Below, piece by piece: positions 17,285 through 25,166 of a DNA stretch of 64,000 nt. Position 1 is the stretch's first letter. Every line of letters begins with the position of its first letter. The position numbers and the translations under genes were made by a program. Origin of the DNA: a bacterium (lineage in GTDB: Bacteria; UBA8248). Under the pieces are notes generated by a model that searched no databases, was not told where the DNA came from, and worked only from the letters and a program-made list of their open reading frames with translations. The DNA is taken from contig OZ242260.1 of NCBI GenBank assembly GCA_965207065.1, forward strand, positions 3,072,001-3,136,000, written 5' to 3'.

Positions 17285-18703
17285 ATGACTGCGTATCTGC
17301 GCGCGGCGGCGAACGTTCTCGTGCATGTTCCCGATCTGGTCCGCTACGGCTCGAAGCCCTGGCGTGAGGCTGTAAGGAAGGAGCAGGCGCCGGGCGACTC
17401 GTTCAACGACCTGCGTTCTTTTGACGAGATAGTCGGCTACCCGCCGAACCAGACGTTCATCGGCAATCTACCGCCCGAAAAGCTGAATGAAACTCCAACT
17501 CCATGGCACGAGAATTCCCCCGCAGGCGCTTCGCCTGAGAGCCAATTCGGGGAAATCCTCCCCCAGGATGCTTTCTACGCCCTATTGGAAGCGGCGGATC
17601 AGTTCGGGTTGATCATGCTCGATGAGGAGCGCCGCCTTCCGGGCGTCATGGGTTCTGAATCCGCCGCCGCGCTTCTCGAAAAAGAAAATCCTCCGAAGGA
17701 TTACAAACAAGAAGACATTATTGAACGCATCGAGCGGGGAGAGGCCCTGCCGCTTTTTCAGGACGGGGACATGATCGGGTGCGTTCGCCGCGATCATGAC
17801 GCCGATGAGTCCCTGGACGCCCGCATTTTGCTGGAGAACCTCGCGGCCAAGGCCAGCGGCGCGTATGCGCTCAGCCGGCTTCTCGTGAGGGAGGGCATCG
17901 CGCCCGAACAGGTGGATTACGTCATCAGTTGTTCGGAAGAGGCGGTGGGAGATCGCTACAACCGCGGCGGGGGCAATCTCGCAAAGGCTATCGCCGAGAT
18001 GGCGGGCTGCGCCAATGCGGCCGGCGTGGACGTGAAGTCTTTCTGCGCGGCGCCGGTCTACGCGCTCGTTCACGCGGCGGCGCTGATTCAGGCGGGCGTC
18101 GTTGAGAACGCCGTCGTCGTGGGAGGCGGTTCGATGGCGAAGCTCGGTATGAAGGCGTATTTCCATCTGGAAAAGGGGATGCCCGTCCTAGAAGACGTAT
18201 TGGGCGGGGTGGCGTTCTTTCTCACGAAAAATTCGGACGACGGCCCACGGGTGAATCTTAAGATCGCCGGACGCCACGCGGCGGGAAAACCCTCCACGCC
18301 GCAAGGACTGGCCGAGGCGCTCGTGCGCGACCCGCTGGCCCGGGCCGGACGCAAGATAAGCAGTGTCGATAAGTACGCCGTCGAACTGCACAATCCGGAA
18401 ATCATGCTGCCCGCGGGGGCGGGAGACGTGGCGGCTGCGAATTACAAGATGCTGGCCGCCCTGGCGGTGATGGGCGGAGAAATCGCACGCGAGGAGATTC
18501 CGGATTTCATCGAGGCGCACGGAATGCCCGGATTCGCGCCCACGCAGGGGCACATTCCCGCAGGGGTTCCCTTTCTCGGACACGCCCTCGAGAGGATGCG
18601 GGCGGGAAGCCTTGCGAGTACAATGATCCTCGCCAAAGGGAGTTTGTTTCTGGGCCGGATGTCCCAGCAGGCCGACGGGGCTTCGGTGCTGATAGAAGCG
18701 TGA
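17285..18703 (+). CDS. grdC: Glycine/sarcosine/betaine reductase component C, beta subunit
   Basis: [60 protein letters not shown] and KGSLFLGRM motifs. Confidence 0.9.
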
Positions 18704-18740
18704 TTCGTTCGTTTTTTTGCAGGCAAGTGGGAGGGGGTTC

Positions 18741-19193
18741 ATGTTCAATGGCAAGAAGGTGATCGCGCTGGGCGAGCGCGACGGCGTTCCCGGTCCGCTG
18801 ATCGCCGAGTGTATTGAGGCGGCGGGTGCGGAGGTCGTGTTCCAGAAGACGGAGTGCTTCGTCTGAACCTCCGCGGGCGCCATGGACCTGGAGAACCAGG
18901 CCGCCATCAAATCGATTGCCGATGAAGTCGGGTCGGAGAACCTGATGGTGGTGTTGGGAATGCCCGGTGAAGGCCTTCGGCTCGCCGTCGAAACGCTGAC
19001 CACCGGGGACCCAAGCTGGGCCGGGCCCCTGGCGGGAGTCTCGTTGGGACTCCCCGTTTTTCATATTCTGGAAGAGAAGGTGCGCGCCCAGGTTCCAGAG
19101 AATCTGTACGCCGATAAGCTCCTCATGATGGAAATGGTGCTCGATCTGGAGCAGATAGAAAGCGACCTGGCCTCTATGCGCGCGGCCGGGTAG
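18741..19193 (+). CDS. grdA: Glycine-reductase selenoprotein A (Sec encoded by TGA 18864-18866)
   Basis: Read-through translation: [18 protein letters not shown]...[17 protein letters not shown]...[21 protein letters not shown]; CxxU motif; RBS GGAGGGGG. Confidence 0.93.
18887..18900 (+). promoter_or_regulatory. Candidate SECIS apical hairpin of grdA
   Basis: CCTGG-AGAA-CCAGG, about 20 nt downstream of the TGA. Confidence 0.55.
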
Positions 19194-19201
19194 GGGAGGC
19201 G

Positions 19202-20488
19202 ATGATGTCCATGCGACTGGAGATGGGGTTATTCCCCGTATCGAAAATCATCATCGGTGCGCGCTTCGAGTACAAAGAAGGTACGCTCACCGTTGACGCG
19301 GACGAGCTCCGTGAACTGGCGCTCGAAGACGGCGGCCTCAAGAACGTGCGCTTTGACGCCGCGGCGCCGGGCGATTCCGTGCGGATCACCAACGTGCTCG
19401 ATGCAGTGGAGCCTCTCTACAAGGTGAGCGGGCGCTCATGCGCATTTCCGGGGTTCCTGGGACCTGCGAAAACGGCCGGCCAGGGCCGCACCCACAAGCT
19501 GGCCGGGATGTGCGTGATCAGCACCACCCATTTCCTGGGGCCCATGACGGGCATCATGAGCTTTCGCGAGGGCATCATCGACATGTCCGGTCCCGGTGCG
19601 ATGCACTGCACGAATTCGGAGACTGCGAACCTCGTCGCCTGCTACGAGCCGCTGGATGGCGCCTCGAACGAAGCGCATGACGACGCCGTGCGCCTGGCGA
19701 CGCTGAAAGTAGCCTCCCGGCTGGCTGCGAACACGGCGGACCTCGAACCCGTGAGCGTCGAGACGTTCGAGATTGGAGATGTGGACCCTGAATTGCCCCG
19801 TGTGGTTTACGTCGATCAGGTCATGCACCAGGCGTCCATGGTCCAGACCTTCATGTACGGCAAGAACCTGGGCGATTCGCTGCCCACCCTCATTCACCCG
19901 AACGAGATGCTCGACGGCGCGGTCGTGGGGGCGAACTACAAGACGCAGCAGAAGGCGCCGACCTACCTCCACTGCAACAAGCCGCTCATATACGAGCTCT
20001 ACCGCCGCCACGGTGTGGACCTCAACTTCGCCGGCATGGTCATCACGCGGGGCCACCACGACAATCAGGCGCTCAAGGAGCGCTCGGCGCAATACGTGGC
20101 CAAGCTGGCCACGCTACTCAAGGCCGACGGCGCGGTGCTCGCCTTCGAGGGCGGCGGCAACTCCACGGTGGACTACTGGCTCACTGTCCAGGCGCTCGAG
20201 CAGATGGGCGTGAGCGCCGTCCCGATCATCTACGAGGTGGGCCGGCCGGGGTCGGGCGAGTTCCCGCTCGTCTTTCACGTGCCCGAGGCCGACGCCATCG
20301 TATCCAAGGGGATGCAGGGGGAGCGCATCGCCGCCCCGGCGGTGGAGCGGGTCATCGGCTCCGAAATCGTCGAATTCTACAACGGCAAGAGACACAACGT
20401 CCGCGAGGCCTTTACCCTGGCCGACAGCGACTACTACGCCAGCGAGTGGGCGAAGGACATCAACAACATGGTGGGCAAGGATTATTGA
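19202..20488 (+). CDS. Glycine/sarcosine/betaine reductase component B proprotein (GrdE/GrdG/GrdI family)
   Basis: PGDSVRITNVLDAVEP, GQGRTHKL, EGIIDMSGPGA, LPTLIHPNEMLDGAVV, ELYRRHG and KERSAQ motifs. Confidence 0.88.
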   Translation: MMSMRLEMGLFPVSKIIIGARFEYKEGTLTVDADELRELALEDGGLKNVRFDAAAPGDSVRITNVLDAVEPLYKVSGRSCAFPGFLGPAKTAGQGRTHKLAGMCVISTTHFLGPMTGIMSFREGIIDMSGPGAMHCTNSETANLVACYEPLDGASNEAHDDAVRLATLKVASRLAANTADLEPVSVETFEIGDVDPELPRVVYVDQVMHQASMVQTFMYGKNLGDSLPTLIHPNEMLDGAVVGANYKTQQKAPTYLHCNKPLIYELYRRHGVDLNFAGMVITRGHHDNQALKERSAQYVAKLATLLKADGAVLAFEGGGNSTVDYWLTVQALEQMGVSAVPIIYEVGRPGSGEFPLVFHVPEADAIVSKGMQGERIAAPAVERVIGSEIVEFYNGKRHNVREAFTLADSDYYASEWAKDINNMVGKDY

Positions 20489-20652
20489 GGTCGGGGGCCT
20501 GTGAAGGAGATATTCGCCCCAAATGGTGTTCGCCATGGGACAGAACATGCCGAAGGCCGAGCGTGAGAAGGTGGAAGTCCAGAAATCGTTGACATAGAAA
20601 CCAAAGATAGTGTAAAAAATACGAAAATAAACAATTCAAGGTCTATATGTTA

Positions 20653-20920
20653 GAAACGACCGACAAGGGTATTTTGCAAGGGTTCATTCAAGATCAAGTT
20701 TAGGGTGGGGACGGGGTGTAAATGAGAGAGCATATTCCAAGACAGAATATGCGCGGATAGTATGAGACCTATAACAAAATGAGCTGCAAAATTTGAGCCG
20801 TTACATGGCAGAATATTCAGGCTGTCAAATTCTTCGGCCTATGGACACCATCGACCAAATGATTCCATGGTTTTGGGAATTAGCAGCAAGAGGCTCCTCT
20901 ACAAAGACTTGATTTCATAA
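20653..20920 (+). pseudogene. Degenerate IS1595-family transposase fragment
   Basis: Broken frames give ETTDKGILQGFIQDQV, G*YETYNKMSCK..LSRYMAEYSG..RPMDTIDQM and MVLGISSKRLLYKDLIS*, resembling the IS1595 C-terminus (GTYHKMSxKHLxRYxxEF..KRLxYxDLI). Confidence 0.7.
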
Positions 20921-20987
20921 TATTATCTGGCCGAAACTAAAGAGGTTAGAGGTTGGTGTAGATTCATATCAGAGAGGACTAAGAAAT

Positions 20988-21731
20988 ATGGCTAGGCCGG
21001 AGCAAATACCCACTGACCTTACCATTGACCTAGGGGACGACTTGTCTCCCAGCGAATTTATTTCAGCAATTCGCAATTTCTTAGGTTATGTCGCCGAGAT
21101 TACCGATTCGCAAAAAGGCGATGGAGCTGACATTACATGGATTGTACGCGTTCACGAAGGCAGTGCATTGGTTGGAGTAGAACCGGATCCATCTGCGCCA
21201 AAATCTAGGCTGGCAATGATCTATAAGAAGGCAAAACATGGACCAATAGCACTAGCTAACGGCAACGTTGAGGATGCGGGTTTATCTGAAAAGGCGATAG
21301 ACCACTTGAAGAACCTATCTAACTTGGTTGGAAAGCATCAGAATGGCAAGGGTGTGAATCTTTGGGTTGAGAAGAAACCGATAAACATAAGCTCTGGAAT
21401 CGCGAAAGTTATCAGAGAGGATTGGAGAAGCGATTATTACGACTTTGGTACAGTTGAAGGCAGGTTGGAGGCCATTCTAGACGCGGCCGGGGGATTAAAG
21501 ATTAGAGTCAAAGACTTCCTCTATCCGCGAGCAATTAATTGTGTTGTACCAGAGAGTTTGATCAACAAAGTACTTGACAACTTCCGGCGTCGCGTCGAGA
21601 TCGAGGGGCGTATTCACTATCGTCGTAACGGCACTCCAATAAGTATTGCAGTCGAAGCGATCCAGAAATTACCGGAAGACGATGAATTGCCTACAGCGGA
21701 TGATGTTCGCGGGATAATGGCAGGCACATAA
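20988..21731 (+). CDS. Hypothetical protein, putative partner/antitoxin of the PIN protein
   Basis: 247-aa low-GC ORF with GAGAGGA RBS; its stop overlaps the PIN gene start (TAATG). Confidence 0.75.
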   Translation: MARPEQIPTDLTIDLGDDLSPSEFISAIRNFLGYVAEITDSQKGDGADITWIVRVHEGSALVGVEPDPSAPKSRLAMIYKKAKHGPIALANGNVEDAGLSEKAIDHLKNLSNLVGKHQNGKGVNLWVEKKPINISSGIAKVIREDWRSDYYDFGTVEGRLEAILDAAGGLKIRVKDFLYPRAINCVVPESLINKVLDNFRRRVEIEGRIHYRRNGTPISIAVEAIQKLPEDDELPTADDVRGIMAGT

Positions 21732-22210
21732 TGGTGGAAAAGATTTATTGGGACAGTGATTGCTTTCTTGGCCACTTTCAAAACGAAGAAGGGAAAGTCG
21801 AGAAATGCGACGGAGTATTGCAAAGGGCTGACAGAGGAGACGTGATTATTGTCACATCGACTCTTACGATTGCCGAAGTCTTGTGGATGCGTGGTGCTCC
21901 ACGGATCACGAAGGACAAGGCTGAGATAGTTCAAAAATTCTTCCGACGTAGCTACATACGTGTTTACAACGTTACGAGGAAAATCGCTGAGTCGGCACAA
22001 GACCTCGTTTGGGACCACTCCATCAAACCAAAAGATGCCATTCATGTGGCGACAGCTATTAATCTCACCGTAGATGTACTTGAAACCTTTGACGAGGACC
22101 TAATTGGAAAGAGCGGTACTGTTGGCACGCCGCTCCTTCTAATCAGAGAACCGCAACCATCAGAACAAGGTAGGCTTAATTTCCCAAGGCCGGGAGAAAC
22201 GCCAACTTGA
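21731..22210 (+). CDS. PIN-domain (VapC-like) ribonuclease
   Basis: IYWDSDCFL, TSTLTIAEV, KPKDAIHVATA and ETFDEDL acidic PIN motifs. Confidence 0.88.
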   Translation: MVEKIYWDSDCFLGHFQNEEGKVEKCDGVLQRADRGDVIIVTSTLTIAEVLWMRGAPRITKDKAEIVQKFFRRSYIRVYNVTRKIAESAQDLVWDHSIKPKDAIHVATAINLTVDVLETFDEDLIGKSGTVGTPLLLIREPQPSEQGRLNFPRPGETPT

Positions 22211-22369
22211 GCCAGGAAAAAGAAAATGACCGAAAAGAAGCTCAAGGGTCATCCAGTCAATAATTATATGCCTCCTCAGATACAGGACACCCCCGATAAC
22301 GTTGCCCGCTAGCTCAGAAATGATTCGCCGAAAAAGCAGTTGAGCTATCCTAATAATCCCGTTAGATAA

Positions 22370-22932
22370 GGCCGTTGAATAAGTCCTCCTCGGTCGGAAG
22401 AATTCCTTCTTCCCCAGACGGATTTCGCCACCGCCGTCATTCCGGCGAAAGCCGGAATCCAGGGACTTTGCTTTTGAATTTGTCTATTCGCTTTATCGTT
22501 TTTCATGGTCATCCTGCGATTCGATATCCTAGTCTGTTCTGGATTCCGGCTTTCGCCGGAATGACGAGCAAAATCGTATTCGCTCGTAGCCGGACGCGTC
22601 CCTTCGCATGTCCGGGGTTCGCGAACTGTGGGACAACCCCGAGGAGGGGTTGTCACTACAATCCCATCACGTCAAACGCTCGTTCATCAATCGCGTCAGG
22701 CCCTCTCTCTCCGGCAGTGTCGAACCTTCATTCAGGGCTTTTTCAACATCCCATCCTTGGTCGGCTCTGACACCGGAATGACGAACAAAGCCGCTAGGGG
22801 TGTAGGGACAGGCCCCCGTGCCTGTCCGATGTCCTGTTCTGCAAGGGACAACCACAGGGGATTGTCCCTACTGCCTCCCTCCTTGGTCGACTTCATATGC
22901 CGGATCGCGAAACCAGGACTTTTTCAACAACC
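22370..22932. repeat. Nested palindrome cluster (CGTC-type and GTAG-type REPs) between imperfect terminal inverted repeats
   Basis: Perfect 28-bp inverted repeat CGTCATTCCGGCGAAAGCCGGAATCCAG (22435-22462 / 22539-22566); GTAG hairpins at 22628, 22802 and 22844; ends GGCCGTTGAATAAGTCC / GGACTTTTTCAACAACC (14/17). Confidence 0.75.
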
Positions 22933-23010
22933 CCGGGTAAGACGGCTTGGATAAAATCGTATATAATTCCAAAATATTTGTTTGAATGAATTCATACAGG
23001 AGGCCAGGCC

Positions 23011-24327
23011 ATGAGCGGTAAACTTCGGGTCGTTCACTACTTGAACCAGTTCTTCGCAGGTCTAGGGGGCGAGGAGAAAAGCGACTATCCCGTATCCGCC
23101 CGGACAGGCCCGGTCGGCCCCGGCGTGTTGCTCGACAAGATCCTGGGTGAAGATGCCGAAGTCGTCGCCACGGTCTTTGCGGGGGATGGCCTTTTCGCCG
23201 AAAACGAGGAAACTTGCGCCGCAGAGGCCATCGCGCGGATCAAGGAGTATTCTCCCGATCTCGTTCTCGCAGGCCCCGCCTTTAACGCCGGGCGCTTCGG
23301 GCTGGCCTGCGCCGCCGTCTGCCGCGCAGCGCAGGAAGCGGGGGTTTCAGCAATTACCGCCATGCACCCCGAGAATCCGGGCTTTCCCGCTGCGGGCGCG
23401 AGCGTTCACACCGTCCCCGCCGCAGATTCCGCCGTCGGGATGGAGGAAGCCCTGGAAGCCGCCGCCCGCCTGGGACTCAAACTCGCCCGGGGCGAGGAGA
23501 TCGGCAATGCGGCCGAGGAGGGCTACCTGCCGCGCGGGGTCCGCTACAACGAAGTCGCCGAGCTACCGACATCACGCCGCGCCGTCGACATGGTGTTACG
23601 GAAAATCAAGGGCGAGCCCTACGAGACGGAACTCGACGTTCCTGTCCTTGAAGAGATAGCGCCGCCCGAGGCGATCGCCGATCTCAAAAAAGCGCGCATC
23701 GCCATCGTATCCGAAGGCGGCATGGTGCCCCCCGGCAACCCGGACCGCTTCGCCGGTTCGAGAAACGAGAACTGGGCCACGTATTCCTTCGAAGGGAAAG
23801 ACGCGCTGCCGGGCGGGACGTTCATCTCGATTCACGGGGGCTTCAACACCGTGTTCGTGAACGAGGAGCCGGACCGCATGCTCGCCGTGGACGCCTTCCG
23901 GCGGCTTGCGGAGGAGGGCGAGATCGCCGAACTCCACGATGATTTCCACAGCACCTGCGGGAACGGCGGCGCCTTCAAGGAGATGGACGGCATCGGCCGC
24001 GCCTGGGCCGCGGAGCTCAAAAAGACAGGCGTGGAGGGCGTCGTCCTCCCCGCCACGTGAGGGACCGGCACGCGCAGCGGGGCTGCGCTGGCGAGAGCGC
24101 TCGAGCGGGAGGGCATCCCCACCGTCATCGTCACCTGCCTGCCCGACGTGGCGCGCGACATCGGGGTCAACCGCATCGTCAACAACCGCGCCGGGCATTT
24201 CCACCACCCATTCGGCGACCCCTCCCGGACGCCTGAGGCCGAGCGCGAATGGCGCCTGGGCGCCGCCCGCGCCGCCGCCGCCGCGCTCACCGAAAAAGTG
24301 GACGGCCCCACGGTGTTCGAGTACTAG
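23011..24327 (+). CDS. grdB: Glycine/betaine/sarcosine reductase selenoprotein B (Sec encoded by TGA 24058-24060, codon 350)
   Basis: VVHYLNQFFAGLGGEE, AGPAFNAGRFG, AMHPENPG and HGGF motifs; read-through gives PAT-U-GTGTRSGAALARALEREGIPTV...GVNRIV...HPFGDP...TVFEY*. Confidence 0.9.
24072..24088 (+). promoter_or_regulatory. Candidate SECIS hairpin of grdB
   Basis: GCGCAGC-GGG-GCTGCGC, starting 11 nt after the TGA; G-rich loop. Confidence 0.6.
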
Positions 24328-25166
24328 AAGGGGAAACGTCACGCCTCTCCGCCCGTTTCGCCTGGGGCGGGGCATGGCGCGCCTCGCGCCGCGCGTAAAT
24401 GAGAAAATCCCTCGCGCGCGCATTTCCCCGCATTTGGCGTACTCCCTGAAACCACGGGTTCCGGTATCTTGCGCGCTGCGCGGGAGAGCAGATTCCTGCT
24501 TCCCGGGCGGTCGATTTCATTTACCCCGGTCGGAATCGGGACACGGGAGCGGAGGCTTTCTCAAGGAATCAGGCGAAGGGGCGAGAGCGAAAACGGGGAA
24601 CCTATCCGCAGGCCGTCAATTCCTTCCTCATGGGCCGGAATCGACGCTCGCTTCTCACTCGCGTCAGTCGCTCCCGCATGGGCCGGAATCGACCGCAGTT
24701 CATCGCCGGGGTTCGGCCGCCGCGAGGAGTGGAACGGCGCTCATGGATACAAGGACGGCGGGTGAAATGAAAATAATCATATTTCCCGTAAATATAGATA
24801 AATTCACGGGGTTTTTCGATAAATACCCGGAAACGAACGAGCAGGGTACAAGGGAAAAAATCGATATGATTTCAGATGGTTATGGAGATATCATAAAGAG
24901 GATAATGAATATTCTATCGAGATTTGCCAAACAAAAAAAAGCTATTCGCCTCCCCCGCATCTGCCCGCAACCGCCCGCATTTCCTCTCGCACCGGATCAC
25001 ATCAGCAAGCTCTCCCTCCCCGGTCGGGTTTGACCCCCGCATTTTCCGCAACTGTCCGCATTTCCCCTCCCGAAGCGCCGCCGCTCCCCCTGCGCCCTGT
25101 GGCCTCAGAGGAAGCGGGTGGTGTATAACGTGGCCGGTATTTGAGCGACATCCTCTGGAGGCGGTG

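Follow-up and report, generated by a model that had tools for sequence, protein, structure and literature searches.

The B subunits GrdB, GrdF and GrdH of glycine-reductase-type complexes share the motif UxxCxxC, in which U is selenocysteine (Sec) (Wagner et al. 1999 as cited in PMC6778437 and PMC13188914). The accessible text of these two later papers treats the motif as required and assigns it a role in Sec protection or in contact with GrdA, and that of PMC6778437 terms a B component without UxxCxxC a likely pseudogene. According to the accessible text of PMC10838667, FarB of Cloacibacillus porcorum is a Sec-containing GrdB homologue without CxxC, and its partner FarE is without processing cysteines; this is the sole published case of a Sec-containing, CxxC-less GrdB that we found, and a precedent for the loss. 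Here we analyse a grdB-like selenoprotein gene from a bacterium of the lineage UBA8248, which lies in a 64,000-nucleotide stretch (contig OZ242260.1, positions 3,072,001 to 3,136,000, assembly GCA_965207065.1), referred to below as the window. The gene keeps its Sec codon and reads UGTGTRSG at the motif. We consider it likely that it encodes a functional Sec-containing protein B subunit of a glycine-reductase-type complex, in a deep, conserved UxxGxxS branch that has lost both motif cysteines.

Results

The open reading frame starts at an ATG at 23011, meets an in-frame TGA at codon 350 and continues for 88 sense codons to a TAG stop at 24325-24327. With TGA read as U, the site is L-P-A-T-U-G-T-G-T-R-S-G, whereas the named records of GrdF from Peptoclostridium acidaminophilum and GrdH from Enterococcus gilvus both read LTST-U-GTCTRCG. 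A single base separates each of the two replaced codons from TGC: GGC at codon 353 (24067-24069) and AGC at codon 356 (24076-24078). A preliminary description, made from the letters alone, had reported the TGA with 88 following GrdB-type codons, the motif PAT-U-GTGTRSG against the known TST-U-GTCTRCG, and the replacement of both cysteines by codons one base from TGC; each of these statements holds. The NCBIfam superfamily profile TIGR01918 (various_sel_PB) aligns its positions 1-431 to residues 6-437 (416.4 bits, cut-off 65.45), and because the match extends to residue 437, the post-UGA part is itself a member of the family. Pfam GRDB (PF07355) covers residues 4-349 with 399.3 bits (cut-off 22).

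We searched 51 genomes of the phylum Nitrospinota with the read-through protein, whose close protein relatives carry Nitrospinae or Nitrospinota labels in their sources. Matches occurred in 36 of the 51 genomes (52 match rows), and every one of the 50 family matches that are full or nearly so has a lone TGA at codon 350; two further short matches come without the site. At the 29 best loci of other Nitrospinota genomes (57-95% identity), which form our orthologue set, the sequence PATUGTGTRSG is exact in 28; the motif is constant from genus to genus. Matches beyond the orthologues carry UGSGTRSG (3), UGTSTRSG (5) or the canonical motif (12, as 11 UGTCTRCG and 1 UGTCNRCG). When the window gene is taken together with the 28 loci, codon 353 is GGC in 23, GGA in 4 and GGT in 2 of these 29 complete sequences, and all 29 have AGC at codon 356. 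Since codon 353 varies synonymously, it is the glycine that is selected and not a single frozen codon.

The preliminary description had staked its reading on purifying selection in the frame beyond the UGA and on support for bases 24067 and 24076, and both were found. The median ratio of nonsynonymous to synonymous substitution rates (dN/dS, Nei-Gojobori) is 0.158 upstream of the UGA (305 pairs) and 0.134 in the 88 codons that follow it (306 pairs), and all 29 sequences finish with the same TVFE/DY-stop terminus. An independent contig of 1272 nt from sequencing run X4, whose study differs from that of the near-identical run X1, spans 23521-24500 with 5 differences; positions 24067 and 24076 are unchanged, TGC codons were not seen, and the lone difference within the motif, G>C at 24063, is synonymous. 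Tabulation of homologues with UGA read-through, which had also been proposed, added further motif classes across other phyla to the 28 of 29 Nitrospinota loci. The Sec codon, the hairpin described next and the post-UGA frame are kept under purifying selection with both cysteines gone, and the observation is neither an error nor a pseudogene.

The SECIS-like hairpin (SECIS, selenocysteine insertion sequence) that had been noted after the TGA gains support from both conservation and covariation. Its stem, in which 24072-24077 pairs with 24083-24088, begins 14 nt past the U of the UGA, and the same 6-bp stem (columns 15-20 and 26-31 counted from the UGA) is present in 47 of 47 aligned family members. 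Across these sequences, column pair 19-27 is A-U in 36, U-A in 11 and broken in none, and column pair 18-28 is U-A in 26, C-G in 17, U-G in 3 and A-U in 1. Pair 19-27 joins the first base of codon 356 to the third base of codon 358, and the change from Cys356 UGC to Ser356 AGC goes with a change of Ala358 from GCA to GCU, turning U-A into A-U. This pairing accounts for the constant use of AGC, never of TCN, at Ser356. The compensatory changes at pair 19-27 are evidence for a functional hairpin. The genome, a single contig of 4.48 Mb, also encodes Sec machinery, with tRNA-Sec and a SelA scoring 517 bits.

The protein falls below the cut-offs of all three described types, scoring 404.2 bits with the GrdB equivalog TIGR01917 (cut-off 602.2), 414 with the GrdF model (800) and 350.4 with the GrdH model NF040795 (775). 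Together with a separate clade in our tree, these scores support the new subfamily that the preliminary description had thought possible. Like GrdB, GrdF and GrdH, the window protein has Sec at the conserved position of T-U-G-T-x-T-R-x-G, and it shares their length, fold family and hairpin position; the hairpin and the genomic Sec machinery accompany it, as they do in the superfamily. Like them it is paired with a GrdE-family subunit, with GrdA and GrdC encoded alongside in the same cluster, although a 2.5-kb insert splits the genes. Its identity is 43% to GrdF and 37% to GrdH. It differs from the three in having Gly353 and Ser356 instead of two cysteines and in the lack of GrdD from its genome, and from the named GrdF and GrdH in Cys376, His398 and a two-residue insert (GHFHHPFG against IPYPLG) that are specific to its group. 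A rare form with Cys for Sec, protein P0053, is a full-length homologue of 441 amino acids (44% identity) that reads C-G-T-S-Q-R-C.

To place the motif, we scanned one genome per GTDB species with the pattern T-U-G-[ST]-x-T-R-S(AGY)-G-A, leaving residue 353 free. The scan returned at least 120 stretches; the DNA of 80 was examined, and 78 of these loci are GrdB-family genes. Their motifs are UGTSTRSG (38), UGTGTRSG (29), UGSGTRSG (4), UGSCTRSG (3), UGTCTRSG (2) and UGTDTRSG (1), and the record titles name Dehalococcoidia/SAR202, Binatia, 'delta proteobacteria', Thermodesulfobacteriota/Desulfobaccales, Entotheonella, Nitrospirota and Nitrospinota. A quick IQ-TREE phylogeny was built from 80 non-redundant rows (<88% identity) drawn from 125 sequences. 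The UxxSxxS proteins form one clade (support 100), and a second clade (support 96) contains the named GrdF, GrdH, Acetoanaerobium and Photobacterium proteins; over the whole tree the motif classes need 9 changes against a minimum of 7. UxxGxxS is not peculiar to the window gene but marks a deep, widespread branch. The UxxSxxS branch resembles it in family, in kinds of host and in its losses of CxxC, pyruvoyl Cys and GrdD, but the window gene sits in the separate UxxGxxS group, at about 40% identity to that branch. At one Desulfobaccales locus, a second GrdB-like gene (L109:727-771, minus strand) reads UGTGTRCG, a UxxGxxC intermediate with the second Cys only, and has the U-A form of the SECIS pair that canonical genes show.

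The change of motif is accompanied by loss of the pyruvoyl-forming Cys in the partner subunit and by absence of GrdD, both of which the preliminary description overlooked. In Clostridioides difficile GrdE the pyruvoyl peptide begins at residue 242 (PMC9908766, accessible text). In the systems GrdBE and GrdFG the partner is a proprotein that is cleaved at an Asn-Cys site, the Cys of which turns into the pyruvoyl group, read in GrdG as DGAITSGN-C-VAPC (SGNC), whereas the window partner reads DGAVVGAN-Y-KTQ (GANY) with no Cys. Because Asn-Tyr replaces Asn-Cys, this GrdE-like partner is unable to form a pyruvoyl group. It shares with GrdI, the betaine reductase partner, the lack of an Asn-Cys cleavage site and hence of a pyruvoyl group; the E. 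gilvus GrdI-like protein (35% identity) differs in reading SGSFMPC, that is, SGSF and a later Cys. The partner scores 263 bits with the NCBIfam GrdG model (cut-off 780).

The same loss is seen at related loci. Partners at 33 UxxGxxS-group scan loci have N-[YF] in 24 cases and another Cys-free site in 2; in 7 the site falls outside the locus, and N-C occurs in none. Among the UxxSxxS-group partners, 28 are Cys-free at the site, 8 have a Cys a few residues off, where the alignment is ambiguous, and 3 loci come without the site. Six Dehalococcoidia partners from this group (L059, L073, L081, L111, L115 and L120) read DGAVV-C-SYW, the Cys of which could match the GrdG pyruvoyl Cys with a 3-residue gap (an ambiguous placement), and some UxxSxxS systems may be processed. 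Nitrospinota GrdBs with UxxCxxC likewise have Cys-less partners (GF[CS]RP).

GrdC is present and GrdD is missing, unlike in the textbook component C, which comprises both. In the complete genome of the window the curated GrdD model gave nothing above 20 bits, and tblastn with E. gilvus GrdD gave nothing at E<=1e-3. GrdD was found in 0 of the 51 Nitrospinota genomes (E<=1e-10), against 36 of 51 for GrdC, and within 3 kb of none of the 80 scan loci. Among chromosome-level genomes from other phyla that carry a Cys-less GrdB, 0 of 5 had GrdD and 5 of 5 had GrdC. As a positive control, the same searches recovered GrdD, beside GrdC, in 3 of 4 named records. GrdD is a PlsX-like subunit that reportedly makes acetyl phosphate.

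We then modelled the protein with AlphaFold2 from an alignment of 24 diverse read-through sequences (mean predicted local distance difference test score, 88.8). The model has a strand at 343-347, Sec350 at the N terminus of a helix spanning 351-366, a second strand at 371-375 and a helix at 378-384. In this model the canonical motif residues i, i+3 and i+6 would share one face of helix 351-366. Over the 80 non-redundant rows, Cys at position 376 occurs in UxxGxxS/UGSG proteins and in 0 of 28 UxxSxxS, 0 of 16 UxxCxxC and 0 of 5 UxxCxxS/UxxDxxS rows. As neighbouring strand ends lie close together in a parallel beta-alpha-beta unit, Cys376 is a reasonable candidate for a relocated partner thiol, and it may replace the lost one. 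His398 is present in 26 of 31 UxxGxxS-group rows, whereas 15 of 16 canonical rows have Pro. A PDB sequence search with the window protein gave no match at E<=0.01, and a Foldseek comparison of the model with the PDB returned generic two-lobed alpha/beta folds (periplasmic-binding and SIS-type) at TM (template modelling score) <=0.25, which were uninformative and set aside.

Table 1 Features of the grd cluster, in window coordinates
Feature	Position	Strand	Details
grdC-like (component C beta subunit), 472 aa	17285..18703	+	NCBIfam NF040746, 585 bits vs 450, full length
grdA (selenoprotein A)	18741..19193	+	in-frame TGA 18864-18866; intact C-F-V-U motif
grdE-like (protein B partner), 428 aa	19202..20488	+	Pfam Gly_reductase, 361 bits; Asn245-Tyr246
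2.5-kb insertion between grdE-like and grdB-like	20489..23010	.	GC 0.50 vs ~0.63 in flanks
Inverted-repeat element in insertion	22435..22566		perfect 28-nt arms, 76 nt apart
grdB-like selenoprotein gene	23011..24327	+	438 aa including Sec350; ORF reading, Pfam and NCBIfam profiles
UGA as selenocysteine, codon 350	24058..24060	+	single conserved TGA; post-UGA selection
Codons 353-356 (G-T-R-S)	24067..24078	+	GGC replaces Cys353; AGC replaces Cys356
SECIS hairpin	24072..24088	+	6-bp stem CGCAGC/GCUGCG, apical GGG; possible G-C 24071/24089
Cys376 (TGC)	24136..24138	+	directly follows strand 371-375; UxxGxxS-group specific

The remaining genes of the cluster are collected in Table 1. The grdC-like product is 42% identical to E. 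gilvus GrdC (tblastn). For grdA, an ATG with GGAGGGGG upstream was read; Pfam GRDA matches the post-UGA part (115 bits), and the product shares 54% identity with E. gilvus GrdA in 150 residues spanning the TGA.

The four grd genes are contiguous at 5 of the 6 orthologous loci that were enlarged, and the sixth (G030) carries another insert at this junction, about 1.8 kb long and unlike that of the window. The window insertion holds an open reading frame of 247 codons (20988-21731) with no Pfam match and, overlapping it by 1 base, a PIN-domain frame (21731-22210, E 2.9e-13); the two are likely a toxin-antitoxin pair. The inverted-repeat element has a sub-threshold Rfam match to WsnRNA46 (42 bits vs 65.3). 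Both of its strands translate to peptides of the SGESRNP / IPAFAGMT type, which we take to be typical of small repeated palindromic elements.

GC content is about 0.63 over the first 26 kb of the window and about 0.47-0.50 from 28 to 46 kb, and rises again thereafter. The grd cluster lies in the GC-rich part, which it shares with PrpD/MmgE-like genes, a multicopper oxidase and SDR genes, and PrpD/MmgE paralogues recur close to grd clusters of relatives. Neighbours seen at the window and related loci comprise PrpD/MmgE-like, SDR, multicopper oxidase, CoA transferase, acyl-CoA dehydrogenase and TctABC genes, none of them conserved past genus. In another Nitrospinota genus (G042; L193:9388-11101), two CoA-transferase subunit genes directly follow the grdB-like gene; together with the lack of GrdD, they may hint at a CoA-ester product. 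Elsewhere in the genome of the window are three small PrdB-like genes with an in-frame TGA (C1 at ~832000-832700, L002; 1874200-1874800, L003; and 1074570-1075290). The two that were read have YPV-U-PLCNRS and IPV-U-PLCMRS, keeping UxxC with the second Cys changed to Ser.

Discussion

With a partner that has no pyruvoyl group, no Schiff base would form, as in betaine reductase (GrdHI) and fluoroacetate reductase (FarEB). The substrate would then be expected to bring a leaving group with it, attached to the alpha-carbon, for which trimethylamine in betaine reductase and fluoride in FarEB would be the models. We propose that the Sec350 selenolate, at the N terminus of its helix, would attack the alpha-carbon of an X-CH2-COO(-)-type substrate in which X leaves readily. 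The Se-carboxymethyl (or related acyl-methyl) group so formed would pass to the Sec of GrdA, the Cys of GrdA itself would resolve the selenoether, thioredoxin would re-reduce GrdA, and the C2 unit would be taken by GrdC, in line with the textbook transfer and resolution steps summarised in the accessible text of PMC13188914 and PMC10298544.

Because GrdD is absent, the C2 unit is suggested to leave GrdC by another route. Given the lack of this PlsX-like subunit, the end product probably does not arise as acetyl phosphate through the textbook reaction, and a thioester, CoA ester or free acid is more likely. Without Cys353 and Cys356, Sec could not be parked in an intra-helix selenenylsulfide, and the group-specific Cys376 at the neighbouring strand end may assume that role. 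We infer, from sequence, that redox protection or chemistry may be altered, as the preliminary description had suggested.

Several observations weigh against a functional, conserved UxxGxxS branch, or against parts of this scheme. Cys376 is found in only 24 of the 31 UxxGxxS-group rows, and the loss of CxxC may be functionally neutral. At the 29th orthologous locus (L034) the frame departs right after UGTG and the match stops at residue 357. The single-sequence fold energy of the hairpin region is no better than that of shuffled sequences (z 0.62), and Rfam, at E up to 1 over 18700-24400, reported no SECIS family, its sole match being the sub-threshold one in the insertion. Contigs from the RNA libraries X16 and X17 (apparently the same data set entered twice) extend over 22993-23145 and 23796-23998 alone; they miss the UGA and give no proof of transcription. 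In the tree, the 28 UxxG/xxS rows that form one group do so with a Shimodaira-Hasegawa-like approximate likelihood ratio of 91 (not starred), and three Dehalococcoidia UxxGxxS rows fall outside the main group. The scan counts are presences and not frequencies, because the pattern demands Ser(AGY) at 356. Neighbours at the window and related loci gave no consistent signal as to substrate.

Might the gene simply belong to an ordinary betaine reductase, a GrdH/GrdI orthologue whose cysteines were dispensable and were lost neutrally, with chemistry and substrate unchanged? Glycine betaine is an abundant marine osmolyte, and neither the partner nor the GrdI-like protein of E. gilvus has the pyruvoyl Cys. 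Since the UxxCxxC GrdBs of Nitrospinota also pair with non-Cys partners, the whole phylum stands on the non-Schiff-base side. The unprocessed partner is, however, the only GrdH trait that the window shows: the GrdH score is less than half its cut-off, the named GrdH sits in the other well-supported clade, and GrdD is absent. The named GrdF and GrdH loci both have a BCCT transporter, whereas none adjoins the operon among the neighbours that we tested at the window and at 4 related loci. The invariance of Gly353 and Ser356 across the group is contrary to neutral loss, and we regard a conventional betaine reductase as unlikely.

A haloacetate-dehalogenating reductase of the FarB/FarE type is less probable still. 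The window pair shares the two hallmarks described for FarEB in the accessible text of PMC10838667, a selenoprotein without CxxC and a partner without processing cysteines, and the partner has a weak match to the FarE model NF053623. That match (134.5 bits) lies far under the cut-off of 675, and Pfam found neither a radical-SAM protein (FarC) nor an oxalate/formate antiporter (FarA) among the neighbours tested at the same five loci. FarB itself was compared by its description. According to a figure legend of PMC10838667, Synergistota are anaerobes with GrdD-containing systems. The window pair has both FarEB traits and is not a FarEB orthologue.

Decay of the gene, or a sequencing or assembly error in the motif, with the UGA as a true stop (the likely-pseudogene reading found in the accessible text of PMC6778437), could draw on gene callers ending the protein at 349 amino acids in every close database entry, on the insertion that parts the gene from grdE and on the unremarkable hairpin energy, but is highly improbable against the low post-UGA dN/dS, the identical motif at all but one orthologous locus, the compensatory SECIS pairs, the concurring independent assembly and the common terminus.

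With a Sec-containing, functional UxxGxxS protein B thus preferred, our analysis contributes the UxxGxxS group together with its Cys376, the compensatory changes in the SECIS and the count of GrdD over the phylum. In the selenoprotein B literature outside subscription journals, including the accessible text of PMC1794560 and PMC1976440, neither a UxxGxxS nor a UxxSxxS branch was found described. Literature searches found no paper linking glycine-type reductases to Nitrospina, and for glycine, sarcosine or betaine reductase with SAR202, Binatia or Entotheonella no taxon term appeared among the matches listed. All close database entries end at 349 amino acids, as set by gene callers, so annotation pipelines and motif-based selenoprotein filters miss or discard such genes.

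The window gene shows that Sec can be kept without both cysteines of a motif regarded as essential, and it offers a natural experiment on the CxxC that makes its role testable. Cys-less Sec GrdB proteins span several phyla, mostly lineages regarded as aerobic, and the branch is present in groups that are abundant worldwide, marine nitrite oxidisers and SAR202 among them. Losses of the pyruvoyl site and of GrdD point to an unstudied enzyme whose substrate and product differ. A bolder and tentative reading, which we hold possible but rather doubtful, is that UxxGxxS proteins carry out Se-dependent reductive C-X cleavage in mostly aerobic uncultured lineages (Nitrospinota, Dehalococcoidia/SAR202, Binatia and Entotheonella) with no pyruvoyl group, a thiol at Cys376 and no GrdD. 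Being pyruvoyl-free, such an enzyme would act on a new class of substrates with a built-in leaving group; its resolving thiol would have shifted from the Sec helix to Cys376, and the C2 unit would exit GrdC to be assimilated in the form of a thioester or CoA ester, instead of serving ATP formation as acetyl phosphate. If this is true, nitrite-oxidising autotrophs would gain an uptake route for an abundant marine or sponge-derived organic compound.

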